32,000 nt of DNA, taken from assembly GCF_001735745.1 (NCBI RefSeq), contig NZ_CP017260.1:420001-452000 (forward strand), given 5' to 3'. Position numbers and translations under genes: made by a program. Source of the DNA: Formosa sp. Hel1_33_131. GTDB taxonomy: Bacteria; Bacteroidota; Bacteroidia; Flavobacteriales; Flavobacteriaceae. The notes under the pieces were generated by a model. That model ran no database searches. It had not been told where the DNA came from and saw only the letters and a list, made by a program, of their open reading frames with translations. This document shows positions 2,424 to 32,000 of the stretch, piece by piece; within the stretch, counting starts at the first letter, position 1; every line of letters begins with the position of its first letter.

Positions 2424-3512
2424 TTAGAATTGTATTACGTCTCCTACACTATCAGCCGAATTACTCCCAAGAATATAGTTGCAATTTTTGGGTTGAATTT
2501 TAAAAATAGACTGTTTTGTATTAGAAGCCTGCATCTGGTCAATAATCGACTTAAAGGATAAACTCGAGGCATCCAAAATTATTTCAAAGTTGGAATCAAT
2601 TTCATCAACTGAAGAGATGATTTTTGGGTTTAATTTTTCAACTAATTGAGCGTTGGAATTCGTTGAAACTAAAACAGGCTTAAACTTGATTTCTGGTTGA
2701 TGCTGTTTAAATGGCTTAATGAGGGTAAATAGTTTAATTCCAAAAAAGACGCCTAAATCAAATAGCACATTGGATTTAAAATGTTTTTTGTAAAATATCT
2801 GCATGGCGCCATAAAAACGTTTGAAATAAATGGCATTCCTTCGTGTACTTTCTCCCTTATAATGGATCACTGTAGTGCCGCCATAATAATAGTTATCATA
2901 CCCTTTTTTAAGTGATTTAAAAGAAAAATCAATGTCTTCTCCGTACATGAAATAATCTTCATCAAAGCCCTCTAAGGAGTTATATAGTGAACGCTTCAAT
3001 ACCATAAAAGCACCAACTAAAACCTCTACTCTTGCAGTTTCATACTCCATAATATGATTGGCATAGTAGTGTTGAGAATTTCCTAAGACTTTTTTAATTG
3101 CAATATCAACAAGCGGAATATTTCGTTTGCTTTCTGGAAGGTATTTCCCAGAACCATCAATCAATCGACAGCCTATGACCCCTAAATTTGTTTGTTTCTC
3201 TGCAAAATCAAGAATGGATTCAAAGGTGTCTTCTGCAACGACCGTATCTGGATTTAGAATGCAGACATACTCGCCTTTTGCGACTTGAACGGCTTGATTA
3301 TTGGCTTTTGAAAACCCTATATTGGAGTTGTTTTCAATTAAAACCACAGAAGGAAATTTTTCTTTCACCATCGTGCAACTACCATCCTTGGAATCATTGT
3401 CTATGACAATAATTTCTGAAGGAATATTCTCTAAAGAAGCCTCTACACTCTGCAAGCACAGCTCGAGAAAGTAGCGAACATTATAATTTAGAATGACAAC
3501 GGAGAGTTTCAA
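2424..3512 (-). CDS. Family 2 glycosyltransferase
   Basis: 362 aa. The N-terminus LSVVILNYNVRYFLELCL...IVIDNDSKDGS...NIGFSKANNQA...LNPDT and the later DEDYFMYGEDIDFS form a canonical GT2 (GT-A, DxD) pattern. Confidence 0.8.
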   Translation of the reverse strand: MKLSVVILNYNVRYFLELCLQSVEASLENIPSEIIVIDNDSKDGSCTMVKEKFPSVVLIENNSNIGFSKANNQAVQVAKGEYVCILNPDTVVAEDTFESILDFAEKQTNLGVIGCRLIDGSGKYLPESKRNIPLVDIAIKKVLGNSQHYYANHIMEYETARVEVLVGAFMVLKRSLYNSLEGFDEDYFMYGEDIDFSFKSLKKGYDNYYYGGTTVIHYKGESTRRNAIYFKRFYGAMQIFYKKHFKSNVLFDLGVFFGIKLFTLIKPFKQHQPEIKFKPVLVSTNSNAQLVEKLNPKIISSVDEIDSNFEIILDASSLSFKSIIDQMQASNTKQSIFKIQPKNCNYILGSNSADSVGDVIQF

Positions 3513-3518
3513 AATAAA

Positions 3519-4136
3519 TTAGGATTTAAGAGAGAGTTCAAATGGAATTCTATTGGTAATACTTCGTCCAAGCGTGACTTCGTCGGCATATTCTAATTCG
3601 TCTCCAACAGAAATTCCGCGGGCGATGGTAGAGATGACGACCTCTGTATCTTGAATTTGTTTAAAAATATAAAAATTAGTGGTATCTCCTTCCATCGTAG
3701 AACTCAACGCAAAAATGAGCTCTTTAGTATTCCCCGTACGAACTTTTTCAATGAGACTGTTAATTTTTAAATCGTGAGGTCCTACGCCATCCATGGGAGA
3801 GATTTTACCGCCCAATACATGATAGACGCCTCTATACGAAGACGTACCCTCAATAGCCATGACGTCTCTGATGTCTTCCACCACACACACCACATCTTGT
3901 TGACGGTTGGTGTTGATGCAAATTTCACACAATTCGGAGTCACTAATATTGTGACAGTTCTTACAAAAATTAATATTTTGGCGCATCTTCTGCAAGGCTT
4001 CCGTCAAGTGAAGTGTTTGCGACTCTGGCTGACGCATCAAATGAAGCACAAGCCGTAAAGCGGTTCGACGTCCGATGCCGGGCAATTGCGCAACTTCGTC
4101 CACGGCGCTTTGTAATAATTTAGAAGAAAATTCCAT
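3519..4136 (-). CDS. recR: Recombination protein RecR
   Basis: 205 aa with a helix-hairpin-helix N-terminus ([12 protein letters not shown]), a C4 zinc finger ([16 protein letters not shown]) and a Toprim region ([14 protein letters not shown]...). Confidence 0.9.
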
Positions 4137-4208
4137 GACGCAAATTTAGATAAAATTAAACGAATTTATGTCATGAAATTAAACATCTCTAAACACTCAA
4201 AACAGTGC

Positions 4209-7199
4209 TTAGTTTATAATTAATTTTTTAGTGATTTCTTGATTTAATGTATTTACTTTTAGGAAATACAGTCCTTGTGGAGCCTGTAGTTCTATTTCAG
4301 GATTTTGGGATAGATCTCTGTTTTTCTCATAAAAAACCAACTTCCCAAGGGGATCAAAAATTTTGATTGTCACTGGATCGTTTAATTTCCAATTCAATTT
4401 AAAAGTTCCCGTTGTTGGATTTGGTGACACGATCAAATCTGATATTTGTAAATTGTCCACTCCTAAAGCGTCCGGATCAAACAAGTTAACACGCCAAAGT
4501 CCACGTCCATAAGTTGCAACGTATAGCTTACTATCTGCCGTATTTATTTCAAGTTCACGAACTTGAATATTTGGCAGTCCTGTATCATAAGACGTCCAAG
4601 TTGTTTCATTATTTCTGAGGTAATAGACTCCATAATTCATCCCTAAGTATAATATATCTTCATTGTAAGTCGTATCCCACACCAATGCCAAGGCACTAAA
4701 ATTTGGTAAGTCATGAGATTCAACACTCCAATTTTCGCCACCATCACTTGAAATATAAACCTTATCGTTGGAATTTGTTGCAATCGCTAACTTATTTGAA
4801 ATTGTAGGATGAATGGCAATCGAATTAATGTTTCCAGAAAATCCTGTTACTTGCGTCCAATCTCCTTCTGATCCTCCATTTGTGGTTTTGTAAAGGTTCT
4901 CTCCAAATGCAGCATATAGGGTATTGCTATCAGAGGGTGCTATTTTTAAATGATTTGCAGTACTACCAAAATCTTGAGAGATAGAACTCCAAGTAGCTCC
5001 TGCATCAAGGGATTTATATATTTCACGGTATCCAGAGTATAATGTAGCACCAACATTAGGATCCTGTTCAAAAGGGGTGACCCAGCTACCGTCTGGACCT
5101 TCAACATCATCAAAATATCCATGGTTGATCCAACTATAACTTGCTCCTTGATCGTATGATTTGTATAAAGTCCCATTTTGGGAGGTTCCATACAAAATAT
5201 TAGAATCTGAATGGTCTACAAATGACTCCATTCCATCAGCCCCTAACCAATCGTACCAGATGCCATCGGCTCTATAAACAGAAGTCCCATTATCTTGAGA
5301 TCCTCCGGAAACAATCACAGGATCTGTTTGACTGATTCCAATTTTATAAAATTGACGAATTCCCAAACCAGCGGTTAAATCGGTATAGTAAGTACTACTA
5401 ACATTCAGTGGGTCATTAGCAACAAAAATACCGCCATCACTCCCCACATATATTTTGTCATTATGATAAATCATAAGATCAATGTCTGCATGGCAGTACC
5501 CAATATTTTGATCTGCTGCATTTCCAGGCACCCATTGTGAAGTAATATTAAAATCGGTTCCACCATTTGTAGAACGCCATGATAAAATCCCTGCAATATG
5601 AACATCCTCTGCATCAGATGGGTTGACAATAACATCCATATCTCTTGGTGCCTGACCTCTATCGTCACTTGCATCAGATGTATACCCAAAATAATTTTTC
5701 CCTGTATGGTCTAATTTAGTAAAATTGGCACCACTGTCAGTAGATTTATAAAACCCTCCAAATATGCCGCCAGCTGCTTCTAGTATATACACAACATCCG
5801 GATTATCAGCAGAAACACCTATCATTTTTGGACCATTTGAAAAATCATTATCACTCAATTCAAACCCATTTTCGAAAATAATACCCAATGAAGAATCTTC
5901 AATGGATACGGCATCTAAAGTTGTGGGTTTTCCATAATTATTAGTCACTTCAAATGCAATATAATAATCGTCTGAAGCATCTGGTAAAGCTAATGTAACA
6001 TTTTGCCAATTTGGCACTGAGTCAGGATAGTTCGCTAATTCTATCCATTCACCATTAATAGATGTTTTGTAAAGTACTCGAAACCCATTTAAGTAGGGAC
6101 CAAGCCATCTAAGATTCGAAAAAGAAAAATTGAGTTCTGGCGATGCTGCATTACTCAAATCTAAAGCCGGAGTAACTAATCTTGTAATTGGATTCTCATA
6201 ACTTGGCAAGTAAAAATTCGCCATCATATCTCCTTGAACAGGACTAACAGAGCCCCAAGGATTTGATGCCCCAATAGTCCAATTTGTTTGACCTTGCACA
6301 TTTTCTTGAGTCCAAGGGCTAAACAAATCATCGTAAAAGGTTAAACCGCCATCCGTGGATTTAAAAAATAAATTTCCAGATGCGTAAATCGTATTGGTAT
6401 CTCCAGGCTTAAACTCTACGTCGTAGCCTCGACTAGAGCTACCGTGGATTTTCTCCCAATTGACACCAGCATCCGTAGATTGAAAAACTCCAGAAGATTC
6501 TGTTGAACAAAATAGTTGATTCGTATTCGATGGATTGATTAAAATTTTATTTACATTTCCATTTCCTGTATCGGCTAATTCGTTCCAAGTTGCCCCGGCA
6601 TCTGTAGATTTAAAAATAACACCACTATTACTTCCCCAAAAATAAATATTAGAATTTGTGGGATGGATCGTTAATGCATACACATTAATATTAGAGAGGT
6701 TATCTGTTAATGCATTCCAAGTCGCACTCCCATCTGTGGTTTTCCAAACTCCACCAGTTGGGGAACCTATAATCATATGATTCTCGTTATTAGGATCAAT
6801 TCCTATACTTGTGATTCGTCCCACTCCTGGATTCCACCCCGAAGTTTGATTCCACTCATAAGGCCCTAACTGTTCCCAATTGGCAACCCTACGTCTTTGT
6901 CCCAATTGCGTGGAATTATTTTTGTAAGAGTTATAACGTTCTAGTTCGTTATAGTAAAACGAAGGCGATTTTAAAAGTCCATTGTCATCTTGCATACGAA
7001 GTGCATCATACTCCCAACGTTTGTAACTTTTATAACCCGTTCCTCTACCTTTATCTCGATTTTCAAAATAAGCTTCTGCAGCATTTTGAACTTCTAAAAC
7101 TGTATATTGGTTTGAGTTCATCATCTCAAGATAGTCTTGAGCTTCAATAGATAAAAATGACAATAGGAAAACCCCTAAAATAAAGGTTGATTTTTTCAT
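4209..7199 (-). CDS. Secreted BNR/Asp-box repeat (sortilin-Vps10 / GH74-like beta-propeller) protein with a T9SS C-terminal sorting domain; the long paralog, carrying an extra internal domain
   Basis: 996 aa with an N-terminal signal peptide (MKKSTFILGVFLLSFLSIEAQ). It has many S-x-D-x-G-x-T-W type Asp-boxes (TTDGSATWNAL, STDAGATWNEL, STDAGVNWEKI, SLDAGATWSSI, SSDGGENWSV). The C-terminus (VSPNPTTGTFKL...IKIFDPLGKLVF...GLYFLKVNT...KKLIIN) is typical of Por/T9SS type A sorting domains. Confidence 0.75.
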   Translation of the reverse strand: MKKSTFILGVFLLSFLSIEAQDYLEMMNSNQYTVLEVQNAAEAYFENRDKGRGTGYKSYKRWEYDALRMQDDNGLLKSPSFYYNELERYNSYKNNSTQLGQRRRVANWEQLGPYEWNQTSGWNPGVGRITSIGIDPNNENHMIIGSPTGGVWKTTDGSATWNALTDNLSNINVYALTIHPTNSNIYFWGSNSGVIFKSTDAGATWNELADTGNGNVNKILINPSNTNQLFCSTESSGVFQSTDAGVNWEKIHGSSSRGYDVEFKPGDTNTIYASGNLFFKSTDGGLTFYDDLFSPWTQENVQGQTNWTIGASNPWGSVSPVQGDMMANFYLPSYENPITRLVTPALDLSNAASPELNFSFSNLRWLGPYLNGFRVLYKTSINGEWIELANYPDSVPNWQNVTLALPDASDDYYIAFEVTNNYGKPTTLDAVSIEDSSLGIIFENGFELSDNDFSNGPKMIGVSADNPDVVYILEAAGGIFGGFYKSTDSGANFTKLDHTGKNYFGYTSDASDDRGQAPRDMDVIVNPSDAEDVHIAGILSWRSTNGGTDFNITSQWVPGNAADQNIGYCHADIDLMIYHNDKIYVGSDGGIFVANDPLNVSSTYYTDLTAGLGIRQFYKIGISQTDPVIVSGGSQDNGTSVYRADGIWYDWLGADGMESFVDHSDSNILYGTSQNGTLYKSYDQGASYSWINHGYFDDVEGPDGSWVTPFEQDPNVGATLYSGYREIYKSLDAGATWSSISQDFGSTANHLKIAPSDSNTLYAAFGENLYKTTNGGSEGDWTQVTGFSGNINSIAIHPTISNKLAIATNSNDKVYISSDGGENWSVESHDLPNFSALALVWDTTYNEDILYLGMNYGVYYLRNNETTWTSYDTGLPNIQVRELEINTADSKLYVATYGRGLWRVNLFDPDALGVDNLQISDLIVSPNPTTGTFKLNWKLNDPVTIKIFDPLGKLVFYEKNRDLSQNPEIELQAPQGLYFLKVNTLNQEITKKLIIN

Positions 7200-7252: not shown

Positions 7253-8710
7253 ATGAGTTCCTTTTTAATTTTAACGCTCCTTTTAGGTTATTTTTTAGTT
7301 TTAATCCTCATTTCTTTCTTAACGGGAAAAAACGATTCTAATGTCGATTTTTTTAAAGCGGGTAAACAATCACCTTGGTATCTAGTGGCTTTTGGAATGA
7401 TTGGCGCGTCGCTGTCGGGAGTTACTTTTATATCTGTTCCAGGTTGGGTAGAAGCATCTCAGTTTAGTTATTTTCAAGTTGTCTTGGGTTATATGGTGGG
7501 TTACGTTGTGGTCGCTTTTGTGCTGCTTCCTGTGTATTATAAATTAAATTTAACATCCATTTACGAGTATCTTTTTCAACGCTTTGGATTTGTAAGTCAT
7601 AAAACGGGGGCCTTTTTCTTTTTTATATCCCGAGTTTTAGGTGCTGCATTTCGATTGTATTTAGTAGCGATTGTGTTGCAGCAATTTGTTTTTAGTGATT
7701 GGAATGTCCCTTTCGAAATCACTGTTATCATTTCAATTTTATTAATCTGGATTTATACGTTTAGAGGGGGTATTAAAACCATTGTTTGGACGGATACGCT
7801 TCAAACCTTGTTTATGATTACTGCGGTGGTATTGTCCATTTATTTTATTACGGATAGTTTGGGGTGGAGTTTCACAGAGTTTTTAGCCTCAGACGAACTA
7901 AAATCTTACAGTACTATTTTTAATACGGATAGCATTTTAGATAAAAATTACTTTCTGAAATCCTTTTTTGGAGGTCTGTTTGTTACGATTTGCATGACGG
8001 GATTGGATCAGGATATGATGCAAAAAAACTTGACGTGCAAATCACTTAAGGATGCTCAGAAAAATATGCTTTCGTTCAGTGTTGTACTTACATTCGTAAC
8101 CTTTTTATTTATGCTGCTGGGAGCTCTTTTGTTTATTTATGCCAAACAAAATAATATTGCGATTCCGTTATTGGACGGCAAACCCAAAACAGATTTATTA
8201 TTTCCAGAAATCGCCCTCAATAGTGGATTGGGAATCACGCTAGGCATCACTTTTATCCTTGGATTGATAGCCGCTGCGTATAGCAGTGCCGATAGTGCCC
8301 TGACTTCTTTGACGACGTCTTTTTGTGTGGACATCCTAGACATGAAAGACAAATCCGAACAAGAACAAAAAACGATTCGTAAAAAAACACATATCGGCAT
8401 GAGTGTGCTTTTGGTGGTGGTCATCATCGCGTTCAAATACACGCTAAACTCCAATGTGATTAGCAGCTTATTGACCGTGGCGGGTTATACCTACGGGCCT
8501 CTTTTAGGGTTGTTTGCTTTTGGAATTTTTACAGACTATAAAATAAAAGACCGCTATGTCTGGATGGTCGCCTTGGTTTCGGTTGCAATTGTATTTATGC
8601 TTGGGAATATACCCGCAGAAAACTTAGGGGGCTATGTGATTGGCTACGAGCTTCTGCCTCTTAATGGGCTCTTTACTTTTATAGGATTAATGTTGATTCG
8701 ACGTAAATAA
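7253..8710 (+). CDS. Sodium:solute symporter (SSS) family transporter
   Basis: 485 aa and highly hydrophobic with multiple predicted TM segments. The N-terminal pattern [34 protein letters not shown] is typical of SSS-family permeases. Substrate cannot be inferred. Confidence 0.75.
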
Positions 8711-8784
8711 CCTCAACTATAAAAGGCGACTTAATGTTAGATTAGCCGCCTATATATCTTCGAGTGTTACAGAAATATTAGAAC

Positions 8785-11313
8785 TTATTTTACAATCAAC
8801 TTTTTAGTGATTTCGCTATTCGCAGTGTTTACTTTTAAGAAATATAATCCTTTAGGAGCCTTTAATTCTATTTCAGGATTCTGTGATAAATCTCTGTTTT
8901 TTTCATAAAAGACTAACTTCCCTAGGGGGTCAAATATTTTTACAGTCACTAGTTTGTTTAATTTCCAATCTAGTTTAAACACCCCAGTTGAGGGGTTTGG
9001 AGAGACTTCTAAACCTGAGATATCAAATGCGTCCAATCCAGCACTATTAGGGTTGTATAAATCAACGCTCCAGAGACCACGCCCATAAGTGGCTGCATAT
9101 ATTTTTTTATCTGCAGAGTTTATCTCTAGCTCATTTACCAATACATTTGGTAATCCAGTGTTATAAGCGATCCAAGAGGTCGTGTTTTCTCTCAAATAAT
9201 AAATTCCATAATTCATTCCTACATATAAAATATCTTCATTATAAGTAGTATCCCAAACAAGCGCAAGTGCAGCAAAACTTGGAAGGTCAAGAAGCATTGA
9301 GGTCCATGTCGCACCAGCATCAGTAGAAACATAAATCTTATCGGACGAATTTGTTGCAATGGCTAGTTTGTTTGGATTTGTAGGGTGAATGGCAATGGAA
9401 TTAATATCCCCAGAAAACCCTGTCAATGACGACCAGTAAGATAATAAACTCCCTCCGCCTGTTGTTGTTTTAAAAAGACTGGATCCTAACGAAGCATATA
9501 TGACATCACTATCAGATGGTGCAATCTTCAAATGGTCCGCATTGCTGCCAAAGTTTTGTGAAATGGAACTCCAGTTCTGACCTCCATTAGTAGATTTATA
9601 TATTTGATCATATCCGGAATAAATAGTATTGGAGTCGCTTGGGTCTTGCTCAAAAGGGGTAACCCAATTACCTGACTTGCCATCAGGAGATGGAAGAAAA
9701 ATAATACTTTGTCCCTGATTGGTGGATTTATATAAACTTCCAAATTGTGAAGTTCCATACAAAATATTCGAATCAGAATGATCGACAAAAGATTCCATAC
9801 CATCCGCACCCAACCAGTCCTCCCAAGTTTTATCCGCTCTGTAAACAGAAGTCCCATTATCTTGAGCACCGCCAGTAACGATGACAGGGTTTGTTTGGCT
9901 AATTCCTATTCTATAAAATTGACGAATTCCCAAACCAGAAGTTAAGTCTGTATAATAAGTGCTACTAACATTCAACGGGTCATTGGCTACAAAAATACCG
10001 CCATCGCTCCCTACATATAGCTTATTGTTCTGATAAATCATAATGTCAATATCGGCATGGCAATAGCCTATATTTTCAGTCGTTGCAGTTCCTGGCTGCC
10101 ATTGAGATGTGATATTAAAATTGACACCGCCATCTGTAGAGCGCCACGAAAGTACGCCCGCAATATGGACATCATCTGCATCAGTTGGATTGACGACGAT
10201 ATCCATATCTCTTGGAGCTTGGCCACTGGTGTCATCCGCAGTAGAACTGTAACCAAAATAATTTTTTCCTGTGTGATCTAATTTGGTGAAATTTTCGCCA
10301 CTATCGGTGGACTTATGAAATCCTCCAAAAGCACCACCGGAAGCCTCAAGCAAATAGACAACATCTGGACTTGCCGCAGAAACACCAATCATTTTTGGCC
10401 CAATGTTAAAGTCATTAGCCCCTGAAATAAAGTTGTTATTTATTTTTGAAAAGGATTGACCAGAATCTGTGGACTTGAAAAAACCATTTCCTGATGCATA
10501 TACTACACTAAAATCTCCAGGTTTAAATTCTATATCATAGGCCGTGGTAGATTCAGAGTGAATTAAACTCCAATTGACGCCTCCATCAGTAGATTTATAG
10601 ACACCGTCATACCGGCTAGAACAAAACATTTTGCTTGTATCAGAAGGGTTAATTAAAATCTTATTGACAACTCCATTTCCTGTATCTGCTAATTGATTCC
10701 AAGTTGCACCAGCATCCGTTGATTTAAAAATGATGCCTGAAGAACTTCCCCAATAATAAATATTAGAATTAACAGGATCGATAGTCAATGCATACACAAA
10801 AATATTTGAGAGGTTGTCGGTGAGTGCCGACCAATTACTTCCCCCATCAACTGTTTTCCAAACACCGCCTCCTGGCGATCCAACAATAATATGATTGGCA
10901 TCTTTAGTATCAATAGCAATACTTGTAATTCTTCCGACTCCTGGGTTCCATCCAGACGTTTGATTCCAAGATGTGGGTCCTAATTGTACCCAATTTGAAA
11001 CCAAACTTGTCTGACTTGATGGTGTAACATTGTTTATTTCCGAATTGTACCGTTCTAACTCATCAATGTAAAATGAAGACGACTTCAAAAATCCATTTTC
11101 GTCTTGCATTCGAAGGCCATTATATTCCCAACGCTTAAAAGTTTTGTATCCAGAACCTCTACCAGTGCCTTTGATTTCAAAATACGCTTCAGCTTTATTC
11201 TGAATTTCCTGAACTGTAAATTCCTCTGAATTAATCATCTCAAGGTATTCCTGAGATTCAGCATATAAAAATGATAATAAATAGGTAAGTAAAATAAGAG
11301 TAGGCTTATTCAT
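8785..11313 (-). CDS. Secreted BNR/Asp-box repeat protein with a T9SS C-terminal sorting domain; the short paralog of 4209..7199
   Basis: 842 aa, collinear with the 996-aa protein over the signal peptide, N-terminal region, Asp-box propeller and a near-identical T9SS C-terminal domain (KIFDPLGKLVFYEKNRDLSQNPEIEL.AP.GLYFLKVNT). It lacks the internal segment of about 150 aa. Confidence 0.75.
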   Translation of the reverse strand: MNKPTLILLTYLLSFLYAESQEYLEMINSEEFTVQEIQNKAEAYFEIKGTGRGSGYKTFKRWEYNGLRMQDENGFLKSSSFYIDELERYNSEINNVTPSSQTSLVSNWVQLGPTSWNQTSGWNPGVGRITSIAIDTKDANHIIVGSPGGGVWKTVDGGSNWSALTDNLSNIFVYALTIDPVNSNIYYWGSSSGIIFKSTDAGATWNQLADTGNGVVNKILINPSDTSKMFCSSRYDGVYKSTDGGVNWSLIHSESTTAYDIEFKPGDFSVVYASGNGFFKSTDSGQSFSKINNNFISGANDFNIGPKMIGVSAASPDVVYLLEASGGAFGGFHKSTDSGENFTKLDHTGKNYFGYSSTADDTSGQAPRDMDIVVNPTDADDVHIAGVLSWRSTDGGVNFNITSQWQPGTATTENIGYCHADIDIMIYQNNKLYVGSDGGIFVANDPLNVSSTYYTDLTSGLGIRQFYRIGISQTNPVIVTGGAQDNGTSVYRADKTWEDWLGADGMESFVDHSDSNILYGTSQFGSLYKSTNQGQSIIFLPSPDGKSGNWVTPFEQDPSDSNTIYSGYDQIYKSTNGGQNWSSISQNFGSNADHLKIAPSDSDVIYASLGSSLFKTTTGGGSLLSYWSSLTGFSGDINSIAIHPTNPNKLAIATNSSDKIYVSTDAGATWTSMLLDLPSFAALALVWDTTYNEDILYVGMNYGIYYLRENTTSWIAYNTGLPNVLVNELEINSADKKIYAATYGRGLWSVDLYNPNSAGLDAFDISGLEVSPNPSTGVFKLDWKLNKLVTVKIFDPLGKLVFYEKNRDLSQNPEIELKAPKGLYFLKVNTANSEITKKLIVK

Positions 11314-23317: not shown

Positions 23318-23728
23318 CTAGTTTCCAGAGTAAGTCACAAAATTACGAGGGGTTTCATAAAGCGTCACTTCCAAATCTAAATTAGATTCGAGGACAGCTT
23401 TTAGCTTATCGTAAATGACCACCACAATGTTTTCGGCAGTGGGGTTTAAATCTTTAAATTCAGGTACGTCCAAGTTTAAATTCTTGTGATCAAACGCATC
23501 TTCTACTTCCGATTTGATAAAGTTTTTCAGAATTTTAACGTCCATCACATACCCTGTTTCTGGATCGATCTCTCCCGTCACACTGACCGTAAGGTCGTAA
23601 TTGTGCCCGTGAAAATTAGGGTTGTTGCATTTCCCAAAAATGGCATCGTTTTTTTCAAAACTCCAATCGGGGCGGTACAATCTATGGGCGGCATTAAAAT
23701 GTGCTTTTCTACTTATGGTGACTTTCAT
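23318..23728 (-). CDS. queD: 6-carboxy-5,6,7,8-tetrahydropterin synthase (6-pyruvoyl-tetrahydropterin synthase family)
   Basis: 136 aa. KAHFNAAHRL...CNNPNFHGHNY...TGYVMD are the zinc-binding His and catalytic motifs of PTPS/QueD. Confidence 0.85.
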   Translation of the reverse strand: MKVTISRKAHFNAAHRLYRPDWSFEKNDAIFGKCNNPNFHGHNYDLTVSVTGEIDPETGYVMDVKILKNFIKSEVEDAFDHKNLNLDVPEFKDLNPTAENIVVVIYDKLKAVLESNLDLEVTLYETPRNFVTYSGN

Positions 23729-24248
23729 TGGTGGTGTTTATATGTTCGTAAAATTTTTCAAATATGATTTTAAACCATTCGGTGTACAGTGTTGGCTGCT
23801 GTTTGATATCGGCTTTGACGGCTTCCAAAGGCATCCATTTCCAGGCTTCCACTTCTTCCGTATTGATGACGGGAGCTGCTTCGTAAGAACCCACCATAAT
23901 GTGGTCCAATTCGTGTTCGGTGAGCCCATTGTCAAAAGGCGCTTTGTAAATAAACCAAGTGGTTTCTTTGAGGGGCGTCACAAAACCCATTTCTTCTTGC
24001 AAACGGCGTGTGCCGGCTTCCAAATTGGATTCTCCTACCCGTTGGTGGGAACAGCAGGTATTGGTCCACAACAGCGGCGAATGGTATTTATGAGCCGCAC
24101 GTTGTTGCAGCATCAATTCGTTTTGGGCATTAAATATAAACACCGAAAACGCTCGGTGCAATACCGCCTTTTCATGGGCTTCCATTTTTGGCATGGTGCC
24201 TATTTGTTCGTCCTGTGCATTCACAAGAATGACCTGTTCTTCCATCAT
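23709..24248 (-). CDS. idi: Isopentenyl-diphosphate delta-isomerase, type 1 (Nudix fold)
   Basis: 179 aa. HRAFSVFIFN...LLQQRA..K...PLLWTNTCCSH...E....A..RRL.EEMG is the canonical type 1 IDI core with the catalytic Cys and Glu contexts. It overlaps the queD start by 20 nt. Confidence 0.85.
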   Translation of the reverse strand: MMEEQVILVNAQDEQIGTMPKMEAHEKAVLHRAFSVFIFNAQNELMLQQRAAHKYHSPLLWTNTCCSHQRVGESNLEAGTRRLQEEMGFVTPLKETTWFIYKAPFDNGLTEHELDHIMVGSYEAAPVINTEEVEAWKWMPLEAVKADIKQQPTLYTEWFKIIFEKFYEHINTTNESHHK

Positions 24249-24712
24249 GCCACAAAAATATCAACTATATCTTTAAGTTTTACTAATTTCTTGCTAAAAA
24301 ACGGGTTTTGTAAGACGAGCCAAATTTCATGTTTCCATAAAAAATAATTATTTAATTGTAATATATTATAGTCTTGTTTAATGTTTGCCTACTTAAGATA
24401 AACACTGTCAGCTATTTATAAAAATAAAGCGCCATATTTTTTGGATATTAAATAAAATATTTTAATTTCAATTTTTGATTGAGACCCCAGTCTAAATCTT
24501 CAAAATGAATTTAACCGAATGGAGGGAGTGTTTTATATAAATTTTAGTGGAATGAGGGCACTATACATACCTACATGGAATGTATTATAACACTTATAAA
24601 AAAATAATTACCACATTAATGTTGTATAAACTAGTTAGCTGCAGGGGAAAAACGAACATACAACCATTGAAACCTTTCCAATGAAAATTAAATAATAATA
24701 AAAACTATTGAT

Positions 24713-25753
24713 ATGGCTATTAAACTTGACACAAGTACTATAACGATTGAAAATATCATCGTACATAGCATACCTAAACATCGAAAAAGTGACTTTTCTA
24801 TTAAACCACAATATAGTGAACAAGAAAGTTCTCTTCCTGATGCATTAAGAGTGTTTTTTAAGGACAAAATCATCAGCTCTTTGCAAAGTAATAAAGAATT
24901 ACGTGTTTGTTATAATCCTAAAAATGAATCTCCTGTTTCCATTTATATCAATCAAATAATTAATTCGGGTGGTACTGATTTAATTGAGCAGTCAAAATTA
25001 ATAACCAAATATTTATTTGAAGTACAAAACGGACAAAATGCATCAGGAATTTTGGTGATAATATTTGGAAAAATAAATGATAACAAAACTTGCATTATTA
25101 TCAAACTTGAAAGAGATGAAGGAGCACAATTAGTATTAGACCCTGTGACTAAATCTTTTAATATTAAGGATGTGCAAGATTTAATGCTTACAAAGAAAAC
25201 AAAAATATATAAAGTAGGCTTATTTATAAACAAGTCTGAACTTAAGATAAAATATGATGGCAGTACAGCTGATTTGCAAATAGATCCAAAAACAAAAAAA
25301 GAAGTTACAACTTGGTTTATTGAAAGATTTTTGGGATGTATTCCTCTTGAAGACCCAAGACATACAACAAAGAAATTTTACACCTACACAACTACTTTTA
25401 TAAAGACAATTGAGGATCCAATAAAACAAGCTAAATATAGACAAGACTTTAATTCGTATTTGCAGAAAAACTCACAAAGAATTAGTGCAAAGGAGTTCGC
25501 AGATGATTACATGGAAACTACTGATAAAAACAACTATAATAAATATCTAAAGAACAAAAACTTTAGAATGTCAGAGTTTCCCAAGGCTAATGATTATATA
25601 CAAAATAAAATAAAAACAATAACCATAACTTTTGCAAATGACATCGCCATTGTTGGTAAAAAAGGAACATTTGATAAAAATGTAAAACTGGAAAGTCAAG
25701 AAGATGGGAATACAAAAGCAGAAATTATTTCTAAAGTAAAAAGCATTTGTTAA
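24713..25753 (+). CDS. Divergent NdpA/YejK (NA37)-like nucleoid-associated-protein-family member (cassette gene A)
   Basis: 346 aa. Motif order is collinear with gene C and with NA37 proteins: IENIIVHSIPK near the N-terminus, ASGILVIIFGKINDNKTCIIIKLERDEG mid-protein, and WFIERFLGCIPLEDPRHTTKKFYTYTTTFIK. The stop TAA (25751-25753) overlaps the ATG of gene B. Family assignment is by eye and needs an HMM. Confidence 0.5.
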   Translation: MAIKLDTSTITIENIIVHSIPKHRKSDFSIKPQYSEQESSLPDALRVFFKDKIISSLQSNKELRVCYNPKNESPVSIYINQIINSGGTDLIEQSKLITKYLFEVQNGQNASGILVIIFGKINDNKTCIIIKLERDEGAQLVLDPVTKSFNIKDVQDLMLTKKTKIYKVGLFINKSELKIKYDGSTADLQIDPKTKKEVTTWFIERFLGCIPLEDPRHTTKKFYTYTTTFIKTIEDPIKQAKYRQDFNSYLQKNSQRISAKEFADDYMETTDKNNYNKYLKNKNFRMSEFPKANDYIQNKIKTITITFANDIAIVGKKGTFDKNVKLESQEDGNTKAEIISKVKSIC

Positions 25754-26736
25754 TGACTAATGTTCAGAATATAGCTGAATTATGGGATGAGGAACAGCCT
25801 AGTTATGAAAGATTAGGAGCACTCGTTAGTTCATTCATTAAAGATATTATTACAGATTACGAAATATTACCAGAGATTCATTATAGAACCAAGGAGCTAT
25901 TAAGCATAATAAAAAAGATAAAGAAAAAGAAAGTTCAGAAAGAATACTCTTATCAAGACTTAAAGGATAAATTAGGAATTCGTATAATTTGCACATTTCA
26001 AGAAGAAATGGATATTATTGATGAATTCCTTAAAGAAAACTTTGTCATTGTAAATGCAGAATATAAACTAGACAATTTAGATTTTAATAAACTTGGCTAT
26101 ATTTCTAATCATTATGATGCCAAAATAAATTGCATAATAAAAGGGTTTGAACAGTTTACAGAACTTAATAATTACATTTTTGAAATTCAGGTGAGGACAC
26201 TTAATCAACACGCATGGTCAAACGCTGCCCATTCACTTTCTTATAAGCAGGAATCAGAACTCCCCATTAAATTAAAAAGAAAAGTATATCGCCTACTTTC
26301 ATTGTATGAGCTTGCAGATGATGAATTTTCCAGTGTTAATGAAGTATTAAAGAAACAACATCAAAGTAACCCAACTTATGCATTACTAAAAAAATTAGAA
26401 GGTAAATTTTATAAATACGCAAAATTTGATTACGATAGGGAAATATCATTAAAGGATATAAACACCATACTAAATTACTTTGAAACAGAAAATGAACGGC
26501 AAGAATTAATCAATGATATTAATAATTTTATTATAAATAACGAGCAAAAAATTCAAAGAATTTATGAAGAAAATAGAGGTCGATACCACAAAATACTATT
26601 CCTGACTCAACCTGAAATTTTCATTATTTGGTATATGCTCCAAAACAATACTTTTACAATAGAAGATAATTGGGACAGCGATTTTGATAGCGAAGATATT
26701 GAACAAATTAAAACCCTCTGGGGAAATGAACTATAA
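25753..26736 (+). CDS. Stand-alone RelA/SpoT-domain nucleotidyltransferase (small alarmone synthetase / toxSAS-like) with an uncharacterised C-terminal extension of about 140 aa (cassette gene B)
   Basis: All synthetase motifs are present in order: YRTKELLSIIKK (RxKxxxSxxxK), DKLGIRII (D-x-x-G-x-R), GYISNHYD (GYxSxH) and FEIQVRTLNQHAWSNAAHSLSYK (E-x-Q-x-RT..QH.W....H...YK). There is no HD hydrolase, TGS or ACT domain. I use the ATG at 25753 (TAATG junction) rather than the TTG at 25747 in the ORF track. Confidence 0.8.
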   Translation: MTNVQNIAELWDEEQPSYERLGALVSSFIKDIITDYEILPEIHYRTKELLSIIKKIKKKKVQKEYSYQDLKDKLGIRIICTFQEEMDIIDEFLKENFVIVNAEYKLDNLDFNKLGYISNHYDAKINCIIKGFEQFTELNNYIFEIQVRTLNQHAWSNAAHSLSYKQESELPIKLKRKVYRLLSLYELADDEFSSVNEVLKKQHQSNPTYALLKKLEGKFYKYAKFDYDREISLKDINTILNYFETENERQELINDINNFIINNEQKIQRIYEENRGRYHKILFLTQPEIFIIWYMLQNNTFTIEDNWDSDFDSEDIEQIKTLWGNEL

Positions 26737-26739
26737 GAT

Positions 26740-27789
26740 ATGTTAGATTTTACTAATTGCAACATAGGCAACGTGATTGCCCATCAAATTGGAAATAAAA
26801 CCAATAAAGAAGGTATTATTATCTCAAATTTATTACTTGATACAAATGACCCAAGATTGAGGGAACTATTGATTAAATACTTTTTATTCCCATTCTCCAA
26901 TATGGAAGAGTTTTATTCATTTACTTTTTCTGATGGGAATTTTAACTTGAACCCGTTATATCAACTTACAAGTGATGTGTTTTCAAACGAGGGTAACTTC
27001 ATAGAAATAAGTAAAAGTATCGCTCAACATTTATACGAAGTATCGCTACACCCACAAATTAAGGCTGGAGATTTATTCGTCTCAACTTTTAATAATATTA
27101 AAGTTGATAATATATTGGTAAATGGTTTTGGTGTTTTCAAGTCTGAAAATAGACAACAATTTTTAAAATTAAATAAAAAGTCAAATGAATTTGCTTTAAA
27201 TTATGATGATGGTATCAATATTGAAAAACTTGACAAAGGATGTCTAATCTTAAATATAGGAAAAGAAAAAGGATACAAGGTTTATGTTATTGACAAATCT
27301 AATAAATCAAGTGAAGCTCAATACTGGAAAGATTTTTTTCTAAATATTCGACCTACTAAGACTGGATACCATCTTACAAATCAATTTCTAGGAATAGCGA
27401 AACAATTCGTGACAGAGCAATTAATAGAAGAATTTGAAGTAAATAAAACTGACCAAATTGATTTATTAAATCGCTCTGTAGATTATTTCAAAACTAACGA
27501 TAAATTTGAAAAAGAAGACTTTGAAAAATCAGTTTTTCAAAGTGAGGAGTTAATAAAATCTTTTAGAAGTTTCGATAACTCATATAGAGATAATAACGAT
27601 ATAGAACTTGCAAATAGTTTTGACATATCTTCACAAGCAGTAAAAAAGCAAGTTAGGGCTTTTAAAAAAGTATTGAAACTTGACAAGAATTTTCACATTT
27701 ACATACACGGAAATAAAGAACTAATAGAACAAGGAGTGGAAAAAGATGGTAGAAAATATTATAAAATTTATTATAATGATGAGAGTTAA
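26740..27789 (+). CDS. NdpA/YejK (NA37)-family nucleoid-associated protein, Bacteroidota type (cassette gene C)
   Basis: 349 aa. It has N-terminal IGNVIAHQIGNKTNKEG, a central SIAQHLYEVSLHPQIKAGDLFV, YWKDFFLNIRP and C-terminal LKLDKNFHIYIHGNKELIEQG...KYYKIYYNDE. These match my memory of Bacteroidota proteins annotated as nucleoid-associated protein (PF04245). The start is 3 nt after the gene B stop. Confidence 0.65.
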   Translation: MLDFTNCNIGNVIAHQIGNKTNKEGIIISNLLLDTNDPRLRELLIKYFLFPFSNMEEFYSFTFSDGNFNLNPLYQLTSDVFSNEGNFIEISKSIAQHLYEVSLHPQIKAGDLFVSTFNNIKVDNILVNGFGVFKSENRQQFLKLNKKSNEFALNYDDGINIEKLDKGCLILNIGKEKGYKVYVIDKSNKSSEAQYWKDFFLNIRPTKTGYHLTNQFLGIAKQFVTEQLIEEFEVNKTDQIDLLNRSVDYFKTNDKFEKEDFEKSVFQSEELIKSFRSFDNSYRDNNDIELANSFDISSQAVKKQVRAFKKVLKLDKNFHIYIHGNKELIEQGVEKDGRKYYKIYYNDES

Positions 27790-27866
27790 CCTCCTGTGCA
27801 AAGCCTCCCTAGTTAGCGCAACTAAGCTTAGTCAAAGTCATTAGGTAAAATTAGAAAAACAACAAA

Positions 27867-28640
27867 ATGAAAACAACCTTATCAATCATATTTTTATTCA
27901 TTTCAATGTTAACTTTTGGGCAAGAGAAATGGACTTATCAAAATGATAATATTTATAAAATTAACAAAGTTAAAGCTCGAAAGTGGTTTAATGGAAACAA
28001 ACTAACCGCAACAACCTTTTACAATAAAGAGGGACAAATGATAAAATTTCAGCACGAGCCATTTCTTGGCGGTGAGCAAAGAACTATTTATTTTGAGTAT
28101 AATGAAAAAGGGAAATTGATAAATCAAGTGGACACAACACGAAATATCAAACCTGATAAAAAGGCTTTAAAAAAATTAAAAAAAATGGGACTTGATTTAT
28201 CATCAAATTTCAGAAATAACAGACCAGAAATTGAAGTCTTGAAATTTAATATTGAATACGAAGATGACAAACTTATCAAATTAACTAAATTCAATGCTAA
28301 CGGGACATTAAACACCGTAGATCATTTTGAGAACAATGGACGAAAGCAAGTTCGTGAATGGTACAGAAATGGAGAAAAATATCAAGAAAGTATTACAGAA
28401 TACATAGATGACTTTCACAAAGAAAAATACTATGGTTGGGAAATTAGACCTAATCTTGAAAAGAGTAAGTGGAATTACTCTTTTGAATATGTATACGAAA
28501 ATGGAATAATAAAAGAGTTTACTCGATTCGATAATGGGCAAAAGAAAGAAACCACCAAGATGGAATATGATAATAATGGACTTTTAATTAAAGCTATTTA
28601 TTACACGACTGAAAGATTCGAATATGAATATTATAAATAA
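27867..28640 (+). CDS. Secreted hypothetical protein with degenerate YD/Rhs-like (or YwqK/MORN-like) repeats
   Basis: 257 aa with a signal peptide (IIFLFISMLTFGQE). It has recurring Y-x-Y-(D/N/E)-x-x-G-x-L-I units: YFEYNEKGKLINQ, IEYEDDKLIKLTKFNANGTL, YVYENGIIKEF and MEYDNNGLLIKAIYY. It is AT-rich like the cassette. Confidence 0.5.
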   Translation: MKTTLSIIFLFISMLTFGQEKWTYQNDNIYKINKVKARKWFNGNKLTATTFYNKEGQMIKFQHEPFLGGEQRTIYFEYNEKGKLINQVDTTRNIKPDKKALKKLKKMGLDLSSNFRNNRPEIEVLKFNIEYEDDKLIKLTKFNANGTLNTVDHFENNGRKQVREWYRNGEKYQESITEYIDDFHKEKYYGWEIRPNLEKSKWNYSFEYVYENGIIKEFTRFDNGQKKETTKMEYDNNGLLIKAIYYTTERFEYEYYK

Positions 28641-28653
28641 CATTCCCCTGCTG

Positions 28654-28690
28654 CCGCACGAATCCTTTCGTGTGGTTCGTACAAAAAACT
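28654..28690. repeat. Direct repeat copy 1 (hairpin plus conserved tail)
   Basis: ccgcacgaa-tcc-tttcgtgtgg followed by ttcgtacaaaaaact. The 30-nt segment aatcctttcgtgtggttcgtacaaaaaact (28661-28690) matches 30095-30123 with one indel and one substitution. Confidence 0.65.
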
Positions 28691-28806
28691 AATACCAATA
28701 TAAAGGACTGACTGCATCAAACCTTCAATTTCGTACAACAGCAAAGCCAATTTTCGGAACGATTTTTGAGACAGAAATTGTGTTGAATTCTACAAATAAT
28801 AAATAC

Positions 28807-29871
28807 ATGAAAAACAAGAAAAAAGTACGCATTCTCACCCTAGATGGCGGAGGCATTAGAGGCATCATTCCTGCTACTATTATTAAATACATCGAGGAAT
28901 ATCTAGAGAAAAAAATACCCGGAACCACTATTGCCGATCACTTTGACTTTATTTCTGGAACGAGTACGGGAGGCATCCTAACCGCTCTTTACTTAACCCC
29001 TCAGGATGGAGATCACACCAAAGCAAAATATGCTGCTTCAGAGGCATTGGATTTTTATGTAAAAGAAGGCTACGGTATTTTTAACGCCTCAAAGATTAGT
29101 AATTGGAAACGATTGTGGGGACTCAGAAGTGCGACCTTGTTTAGCCCTCGAAATTTAGAAAATTTACTTCAAAAGAAATTTGGAGACCTTCTGATCAGTG
29201 CGCTCATAAAACCCTGCCTTATTACCACTTATAATATGAATACCAAATCTTCTTTCTTTTTTACAAGCAATGAAGACACTTCTAAAAGGGAATTTTATGT
29301 ACGGGACGTTTTACGGTCAACCTCAGCAGCGCCAACCTACTTTCCTCCAGCAAAAATAAAAAATATGGCAGCAAACGTCCAAGAAAATAAGGCGTTGGCT
29401 GAAATGATAAATTTGGACGGAGGCGTATTTGCCAACAACCCTACAATGTGTGCATACGCAGAAGCTAGAAACACAAACTTTAAAGACCGAAATAACAATG
29501 AACCCTCCGCAAGTGATATGTACATTTTATCCATTGGTACAGGCGGAGGCGGCTTTGAACTTCAGCAAAAAGAAAAAAGCGCTAATTGGAGTCTTTTAAC
29601 ATGGGCAAAGACCATCCCAGATATTATGATGGATGGAAGTATTGATACCGTAGCGTTTCAAATGAATGAGATCAATGGAACCCTCCAGCCGAATGATCCT
29701 GGGGCCTATATGCGGATTGATACGCCAACAGAAGATCAAAATTACGCTGCTGACATGTCTGATGCTTCGCCAGAAAACATTAAAAAACTGATGAATGCCG
29801 GTATCAAAACTCTGGAATACGCAAAAGCAAATGGTTTGGATGACTTTCTAGATGGGCTTATAGATCAATAA
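28807..29871 (+). CDS. Patatin-like phospholipase
   Basis: It has the oxyanion motif ILTLDGGGIRGI, the nucleophile elbow GTSTGG (GxSxG) and the catalytic Asp motif DGGVFANNP. I prefer the ATG at 28807 (MKNKKKVRIL...) to the GTG at 28780 in the ORF track. Confidence 0.85.
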   Translation: MKNKKKVRILTLDGGGIRGIIPATIIKYIEEYLEKKIPGTTIADHFDFISGTSTGGILTALYLTPQDGDHTKAKYAASEALDFYVKEGYGIFNASKISNWKRLWGLRSATLFSPRNLENLLQKKFGDLLISALIKPCLITTYNMNTKSSFFFTSNEDTSKREFYVRDVLRSTSAAPTYFPPAKIKNMAANVQENKALAEMINLDGGVFANNPTMCAYAEARNTNFKDRNNNEPSASDMYILSIGTGGGGFELQQKEKSANWSLLTWAKTIPDIMMDGSIDTVAFQMNEINGTLQPNDPGAYMRIDTPTEDQNYAADMSDASPENIKKLMNAGIKTLEYAKANGLDDFLDGLIDQ

Positions 29872-29883
29872 GTTCTCTTACGT

Positions 29884-30096
29884 ATGAAACCTGTTAACAA
29901 TCCAATTTTTAATTATACCGAATTCGGTACAATTAAAAATCAAGTGGGATTAAACCGTTTTACGCTCTCTGTTAAAAAATGGATTAATGCTACAAATACG
30001 ATTGGAGTAGCTGCGAAAACAGGTAGATATGGAGGAACTTATGCTCATTCAGACATCGCTCGCTCTCGCACGAAATCGAAGATTCAACGAAGTTAA
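29884..30096 (+). pseudogene. KilA-N domain gene fragment, truncated at both ends
   Basis: The 70-aa ORF contains FTLSVKKWINATNTIGVAAKTGRYGGTYAHSDIA. This matches the conserved core of Bacteroidota KilA-N proteins (..F.LS...WI..TNAIGI..K.GRYGGT.AH.DIA.EF..). Full-length proteins are far longer. Similarity stops at about 30060, where repeat copy 2 begins. Confidence 0.6.

Positions 30097-30132: not shown

Positions 30133-32000
<1,868 letters not shown>

Follow-up and report, generated by a model that had tools for sequence, protein, structure and literature searches.

Three coupled genes encode two NA37 proteins and a RelA/SpoT synthetase

We analyzed a stretch of 32,000 nt from Formosa sp. 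Hel1_33_131 (NZ_CP017260.1, positions 420,001 to 452,000 of the forward strand), referred to below as the window. At positions 24713-27789 it carries a cassette of three genes, A, B and C, in which the gene for a RelA/SpoT small alarmone synthetase (SAS) lies between two genes for NA37/YejK-type nucleoid-associated proteins (NAPs). An earlier note on this DNA had described three translationally coupled open reading frames (ORFs) on the same strand, and both the ORFs and the sequence bore this out. The operon comprises the following features.

24249..24712, + strand: AT-rich 464-nt gap from idi to the start of A, presumed promoter region of the operon (unmapped)
24713-25753, + strand: gene A, 346 aa, isoelectric point (pI) 9.2, net charge +12; NA37/YejK-family NAP, Pag1A-like
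25753-26736, + strand: gene B, 327 aa from ATG; RelA/SpoT small alarmone synthetase, Pag1B-like
26740-27789, + strand: gene C, 349 aa, pI 5.8; second NA37/YejK-fold protein, of another lineage than A

The stop codon of A and the start codon of B have one base in common (TAATG at 25751-25755), and the ATG of C at 26740 follows the TAA of B (26734-26736) after a 3-nt spacer. A TTG at 25747 is also open as an alternative start of B. No terminator-like sites were found in 24200-28900, and a sigma-70 scan, the consensus of which does not cover Bacteroidota promoter types, was uninformative (34 sites vs 26.4 expected). The family assignments of the earlier note, NA37 for A and C and RelA/SpoT for B, proved correct, with Pfam matches far above the curated cut-offs: A matches NA37 (PF04245) with E=9.5e-20 and 71.7 bits (cut-off 24.6), B matches RelA_SpoT (PF04607) with E=3.9e-17 and 63 bits (cut-off 27), and C matches NA37 with E=1.8e-33 and 116.7 bits over profile positions 1-319 of 325.

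Genes A and B resemble the PANGU type I pair

The pairing of NA37 with RelA/SpoT proteins had been taken as undescribed, but it has been described and tested as PANGU type I in a preprint of April 2026 (bioRxiv 10.64898/2026.04.06.716658). PANGU systems are bicistronic defence operons that centre on a YejK-like NAP. The NAP of type I, Pag1A, is paired with Pag1B, a toxic SAS (toxSAS) of the GRel subfamily with an N-terminal toxSYNTH domain, a helical linker and an acidic C-terminal DNA-mimicking (DMK) domain (bioRxiv 10.64898/2026.04.06.716658). By itself, Pag1B forms an inactive tetramer, and it is non-toxic with or without the NAP; Pag1A is a DNA-threading dimer that is freed upon degradation of the chromosome by T4 EndoII and other nucleases. 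The active complex is asymmetric, with two Pag1A bound to one Pag1B C-terminal domain through interfaces of ~1200 and ~400 square angstroms that involve R258/R306/H314 of Pag1B. Once activated by Pag1A in vitro, Pag1B converts ATP and GTP into AMP and pppGpp, and it leaves tRNA unmodified. Type I operons confer 3-4 log protection against phage, and the characterised examples come from 'F. futtsuensis', P. aeruginosa and E. coli (bioRxiv 10.64898/2026.04.06.716658). As Pag1A activates Pag1B after its release from DNA, the NAP acts as an activator and sensor rather than as an antitoxin. A YejK-domain defence system has also been validated independently in E. coli in the DefensePredictor paper.

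By tblastn against plasmids, we obtained four independent operons in which a NAP gene precedes a SAS gene, from Ochrobactrum (L031), Streptomyces (L032), a Klebsiella IncFIB plasmid (L045) and a C. botulinum phage-plasmid (L046). These reference operons have the gene order and the overlapping junctions of A-B. The profile of the A family matches their NAPs over the full length (E 1e-34 to 1e-49), and A and the reference NAPs have in common a lineage motif, FLGC, which C lacks. The A family is small (189 matches), and its contigs coincide with those of B. Wherever the region upstream of B is intact (26 loci), the gene directly before B is A, at a distance of -1, 0 or +2 nt. Judged from this distribution, A is a dedicated partner of B that is always found with it, and by analogy with Pag1A it is presumed to be a DNA-bound sensor and activator.

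B had been credited with a complete set of RelA/SpoT motifs and nothing else recognisable. The motifs are indeed complete, and the catalytic residues R45, K47, D72, G75, R77, Y116, H120, E144, Q146 and R148 are invariant in 56 homologues, but B also has a conserved C-terminal domain that Pfam does not recognise. In the AlphaFold2 (AF2) model (predicted local distance difference test, pLDDT, 84.9), an alpha/beta SYNTH domain (~1-165) is followed by a linker helix (172-203) of lower confidence and a confidently modelled all-helical domain (207-323). The C-terminal 127 aa are acidic by net charge (pI 4.76, net charge -8). The corresponding part is also acidic in three of the four reference synthetases, that of Klebsiella being near neutral. 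The profile of the B family matches the four reference synthetases over the full length with E 1e-28 to 6e-23 (Klebsiella 6e-23), and the alignment spans from approximately residue 5 to residues 306-324 of these proteins; thus, the C-terminal domain of B is covered by the homology. By analogy with Pag1B, this domain is presumably a NAP-binding 'DNA-mimic' domain. The profile match to the Klebsiella synthetase is also a hint that B may belong to the GRel subfamily.

The best fold matches of B in the PDB are the alarmone-making synthetases SAS1/RelQ and RelP (~1e-9), whereas the Foldseek match to CapRel (7ztb) is weaker and restricted to the catalytic region (E=5e-5, ~185-189 columns, TM 0.3). 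The B family comprises 351 matches. In a library of 1.84 billion representative proteins, B matches 267 clusters at E<=1e-30; among the best 150 of these, most are 315-340 aa long and aligned over the full length. B also matches the PADLOC candidate PDC-S33 weakly through its SYNTH domain (E=9.5e-11), and the reference NAP-linked synthetases score likewise. The best PDC-S33 score among the proteins scanned (1.7e-15) belongs to a 378-aa RelA/SpoT-domain protein encoded on the 3.5-kb ColE1-type Klebsiella plasmid pZZW20-3.5K (L033, 436-1572), a stand-alone synthetase of a family other than that of B and with no NAP gene on the plasmid.

Taken together, A-B can be filed as a pair of the PANGU type I kind by its architecture and full-length homology, with Pag1A and Pag1B themselves compared by description only. 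In both cases a YejK/NA37 gene lies directly upstream of, and overlaps, the gene for a synthetase of ~330 aa, and the modelled order of SYNTH domain, helical linker and acidic C-terminal domain in B matches the layout of Pag1B. The contexts are also alike, being defence islands or mobile elements. In contrast to the bicistronic PANGU operons, the operon in the window has three coupled genes, as do 21 of its 30 relatives. The A-B-C family also differs in being found mainly in Bacteroidota; 'F. futtsuensis', which we take to be Ferrimonas futtsuensis, is a gammaproteobacterium.

The only three-gene form of PANGU named in the preprint, 'Cluster 1 + SLATT', adds a SLATT protein, and a form with two NAPs is not mentioned in the preprint text under the terms that we looked for (bioRxiv 10.64898/2026.04.06.716658). 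Two-NAP loci may have been lumped silently into its Cluster 1. In the Klebsiella operon L045 (NZ_CP092398.1), a DUF4231 gene lies upstream of the NAP gene, and its SLATT_4 match is sub-threshold (E=0.086). DUF4231 is presumably linked to SLATT, and L045 may correspond to 'Cluster 1 + SLATT'. Both this form and A-B-C are three-gene elaborations of a core of NAP and SAS genes, but the extra gene of L045 encodes a small membrane protein upstream of the core, whereas that of the window encodes a second NAP downstream of the synthetase.

Gene C belongs to a second NA37 lineage

A and C had both been put forward as possible partners of B, but the two genes are not equivalent. A is dedicated to B; the lineage of C is a general one with more than 6,400 matches, against 189 for A and 351 for B, and C is dispensable in 9 of the 30 related loci. 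BLASTP detected no similarity between A and C (E=0.22). In a profile-profile comparison they aligned with 92% probability and 19% identity over ~250 columns, the last ~70 residues being unaligned. We considered and rejected a recent tandem duplication as the origin of A and C, given the blank BLASTP result and an identity of only 19% at the profile-profile level. The profile of the C family matches two of the four reference NAPs (2e-8 and 2e-6) and gives nothing for the other two.

Searches of the PDB by sequence and profile returned no NA37 or Pag1A structure; E. coli YejK (9be2) emerged only through the fold search, as the sole significant PDB match of the C model (AF2 pLDDT 86.4; Foldseek E=9e-8, 356 columns, end to end). 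The model thus aligns with YejK over its whole length, and C outscores A on the Pfam NA37 profile. C differs from YejK/NdpA in that it is only 13% identical, has a family-specific basic C-terminal insertion, and sits in, and co-evolves with, an operon of the immune type.

Proteins 60-64% identical to C are encoded by stand-alone genes in ordinary chromosomal surroundings, and stand-alone homologues nest among the cassette-linked C proteins in the tree. By sequence, C comes from an NA37 lineage close to the ordinary stand-alone NAPs of Bacteroidota. In Pedobacter sp. UYP30 (L035, 4920-5000), the decayed 3' end of a B gene abuts the start codon of a solo C; the remnant reads FDYEDHN*IKTLWEKKL*, where B itself ends in FDSEDIEQIKTLWGNEL*. 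This decayed end shows that the solo C is the survivor of a cassette that lost A-B. The idea that C is the resident NAP of the host beside which A-B was inserted was rejected: the genes downstream of C differ everywhere, and sister strains share the whole island.

In one Chitinophagales locus (L005), a second C-like NA37 gene (8183-9259) lies directly after C and has diverged further than any other member of the C tree. It may be the host's own NAP, and one may ask whether cassettes tend to insert next to NAP genes that are already there.

The cassette is conserved and moves as a unit

A genome scan yielded 30 related loci, mostly from Bacteroidota, with one metagenome-assembled genome (MAG) of Cloacimonadota and one of Azovibrio. 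C follows B in 21 of them, with a gap of 0-9 nt in 20. As the A-B(-C) arrangement with its tight junctions recurs in 30 other genomes, it does not arise by chance. Among the nine loci that lack C, A-B is intact in eight, and the ninth (L022) is a decayed copy, rearranged beside an apparent transposase gene. The C-less loci include the basal branch of the B tree as well as a Flavobacterium clade nested among three-gene loci. Since A-B occurs without C, and C without A-B, each is able to persist alone.

A, B and C have diverged to nearly the same mean extent in the 19 complete three-gene loci, and the pairwise-distance correlations are 0.92 for A-B, 0.85 for B-C and 0.79 for A-C, values in which co-evolution and shared ancestry are confounded. 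Where C was lost (a single clade), the C-terminal domain of B has diverged more than its catalytic domain (identity ratio 0.76-0.84 vs 0.91), which is only suggestive of a change in this domain after the loss of C, and A shows no region-specific change. Position 306 of B is Asn in at least 85% of the A-B-C loci and rarely in those with A-B only, a difference too weak to interpret; no other residue of A or B was diagnostic of the presence of C.

We compared the flanks of 31 loci and found only A, B and C in common; no other gene family is widely shared. As the flanks vary and only A-B-C is shared, the cassette moves as a unit. Genes of type I or IIG restriction-modification (RM) systems, type II methyltransferases, GmrSD/NsnA or YhcG/PDC-S02 are found beside at least 10 of 26 loci, and four loci have relaxases or integrases next to them. 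The neighbourhood comparison suggested in the earlier note thus yielded both a conserved A-B(-C) synteny and recurrent RM and mobile genes nearby. These data support the view that the cassette is a horizontally moving, defence-type module that tends to sit in defence or mobile regions. As regards its cataloguing, A and C have no PADLOC or NCBIfam match, and A-B-C matches no catalogued system in PADLOC 2023 or NCBIfam; the PADLOC check of the trio that had been advised gave no system match.

Copies of the cassette also occur in MAGs labelled Candidatus Tenebribacter (Cloacimonadota), Azovibrio (Betaproteobacteria) and Candidatus Kuenenia (L015, L024; P0030/P0156), the Kuenenia copy having come from a protein search and not from the genome scan. 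These copies reflect either transfer between phyla or contamination during binning.

In the three Flavobacterium loci without C (L008, L009 and L010, ~2990-4950), A is directly preceded, at a distance of 12-37 nt, by two conserved genes. They encode a hydrophobic, possibly membrane protein of ~180 aa and a protein of ~465 aa with a P-loop motif (GTPKSGKT), neither with a Pfam or PADLOC match. The pair might serve as another kind of accessory module, or it might be a system in its own right.

The cassette lies in a low-GC island with other defence-type genes

The cassette is part of an AT-rich block between the core genes idi and ligA, with a GC content of 0.27-0.29 over ~24500-28500 compared to 0.36-0.41 in the flanks. 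This setting agrees with the earlier note, as do the KilA-N relic and the patatin gene beside the cassette. The neighbouring features are as follows.

23709-24248, - strand: NUDIX/idi-like gene, flank of the low-GC island
27867-28640: 257-aa ORF inside the low-GC block
28780-29871: patatin gene, in the same island as A-B-C
29884-30096: KilA-N relic, 70-aa ORF, in the same island as A-B-C
30133-31947, - strand: NAD-dependent ligA, other flank of the low-GC island

The 257-aa ORF has a signal-peptide-like N-terminus and a repetitive YD-repeat-like sequence with no significant family match; it is kept only in sister strains and does not lie beside other cassettes. Where the window has the KilA-N relic, the sister strains encode an intact KilA-N protein of 274 aa; the relic corresponds to residues 61-114 of this protein, which itself matches the PADLOC candidate PDC-S22 at 6e-129. 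The sister strains, ~99% identical over A-B-C, carry two more genes between the 257-aa gene and the patatin gene (L041, 11913-13780), encoding proteins of 443 aa and 131 aa with no significant Pfam or PADLOC match. A deletion of ~1.8 kb (site 28641-28790) removes these two genes from the window. By this comparison, the island of the window is a decayed form of a larger defence-type island.

The patatin-like phospholipase resembles CapV, an effector of the cyclic oligonucleotide-based antiphage signalling system (CBASS), but falls under the NCBIfam cut-off (172.7 vs 200 bits); it matches the PADLOC 'Effector Phospholipase' model at 2e-63. No cyclase recognisable by Pfam or PADLOC lies beside the patatin gene, in the window or in the sister strains. 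The gene may be an orphan or part of an uncatalogued system, and the 443-aa and 131-aa proteins might be partners of the patatin protein.

Discussion

We propose, with a probability of roughly 60%, that the cassette was acquired horizontally and works against phage by abortive infection, as an operon of the PANGU type I kind to which a second NAP gene has been added. Its anatomy, homology, architecture, synteny, co-evolution and mobility were computed, whereas the biochemistry as a whole and any role of C are inferred. By analogy with PANGU type I, A would form a YejK-fold dimer that clamps chromosomal DNA and is thereby kept away from B, which would idle as an inactive oligomer. Degradation of the host chromosome by an infecting phage would release A, which would bind the acidic helical C-terminal domain of B and dissolve the inactive oligomer. 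B would then convert ATP and GTP/GDP into (p)ppGpp-type alarmones, and their synthesis would deplete nucleotides, halt transcription and translation, and abort the infection.

C would be a YejK-fold protein recruited from the ordinary NAP lineage of Bacteroidota, predicted to be co-transcribed and translationally coupled with A-B and co-inherited with it. It is most likely an accessory part of the sensor that is not essential for the A-B core. The published 2:1 complex, with its unequal interfaces, would readily account for a second NAP subunit with a specialised part, and C could be the weaker-binding second subunit of such an asymmetric complex of two NAPs and one SAS. C could instead compete for DNA or for the acidic domain of B and so set or insulate the threshold of activation. 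A stronger version of either option, which we put forward only tentatively, makes C an integral working third component, as a heterodimer with A in the weak position of the complex or as a competitor that provides a portable, host-independent threshold. As C is dispensable in nature and close to host-type NAPs, the accessory role fits at least as well.

Two observations weigh against the proposed operon. B is only ~25-29% identical to the reference NAP-linked synthetases of Ochrobactrum and Streptomyces, and the occurrence of A-B without C and of C without A-B suggests that C may contribute little to defence. The latter leads to a serious rival, though an unlikely one in our estimate, in which A-B is the whole system and C is a passenger, hitch-hiking or with a 'stealth' or chromatin function of its own and with no part in sensing or in regulating B. 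A lineage more than 30 times larger than those of A and B and mostly stand-alone, the separate survival of A-B and C, the lack of region-specific change in A after the loss of C, and a locus with two tandem C-like genes would all be expected of a passenger. It is harder to reconcile with the spacing of 0-9 nt between B and C in 20 of 21 loci, which holds in several phyla and amid unrelated flanks, with the distances of C tracking those of B (0.85) at a rate equal to that of A and B, or with the weak sign of a change in the C-terminal domain of B upon the loss of C.

The earlier note had favored a toxSAS-type TA (toxin-antitoxin) reading, by which B would be constitutively toxic and A and/or C would serve as antitoxins until degraded or titrated. 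Stand-alone RelA/SpoT toxins with adjacent antitoxins, such as FaRel, FaRel2 and PhRel, are well established (PMC7229694), and, like the cassette, they combine a stand-alone synthetase with tight coupling in a small, mobile operon; the main text of the same study (Jimmy et al., 2020) mentions neither GRel nor NA37 (PMC7229694). The tight translational coupling typical of TA pairs and the fact that B is never found without A also speak for this reading. However, the homologous synthetase showed no toxicity, with or without its NAP, and was activated by that NAP in vitro (bioRxiv 10.64898/2026.04.06.716658). The partner of the established toxins neutralises them, whereas the partner family here is a DNA-clamping NAP of ~40 kDa with the YejK fold, unlike known toxSAS antitoxins. 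Nor is C likely to be an essential antitoxin, since it is missing from nine genomes, and C-like genes are mostly ordinary stand-alone NAPs. We regard the TA reading as improbable. The idea that the NA37 proteins act as sensing partners does fit the published mechanism, while the activation seen with the homologous NAP speaks against a neutralising role. CapRel, a single protein with a RelA/SpoT-fold effector and a regulatory C-terminal domain, likewise acts by abortive infection; it differs in having a fused antitoxin and sensor that recognises phage capsid proteins and in pyrophosphorylating tRNA, whereas B has a separate conserved partner gene and a fold nearer to RelQ/RelP.

The cassette might also not concern immunity at all but form a physiological stress circuit that links the state of the nucleoid (DNA damage, replication arrest) to (p)ppGpp in the host's own regulation. 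The copy in the window lies between core genes, the product would be the general alarmone of the stringent response, and the A-B-C family is known here from genes alone. A circuit of the host would hardly show the patchy, cross-phylum distribution of the cassette, the low GC content of the window copy or flanks that vary and abound in RM genes and mobile elements, and homologous operons protect against phage by 3-4 log (bioRxiv 10.64898/2026.04.06.716658). We consider such a circuit very unlikely, slightly more so than the TA reading.

PANGU represents a very recent idea, namely immunity through the release of a chromosome-bound protein as phage destroy the host genome. The pair of NAP and synthetase is already known; what is new is the third, co-inherited gene for a very divergent second NAP. 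The NAP-synthetase core forms a compact, mobile family that is spread through Bacteroidota and is occasionally found in other phyla, and approximately two thirds of the sampled members carry a second, co-evolving NAP from an ordinary chromosomal lineage. Defence finders built on PADLOC 2023 or NCBIfam miss the cassette. The natural two-gene, three-gene and orphan-C versions stand side by side as ready comparisons for sensor threshold and stoichiometry. If C does work as an integral component, the cassette would be a heteromeric or buffered sensor of chromosome integrity, a logic undescribed for PANGU or any toxSAS system, and it may shed light on YejK-type proteins, the cellular role of which is poorly understood.

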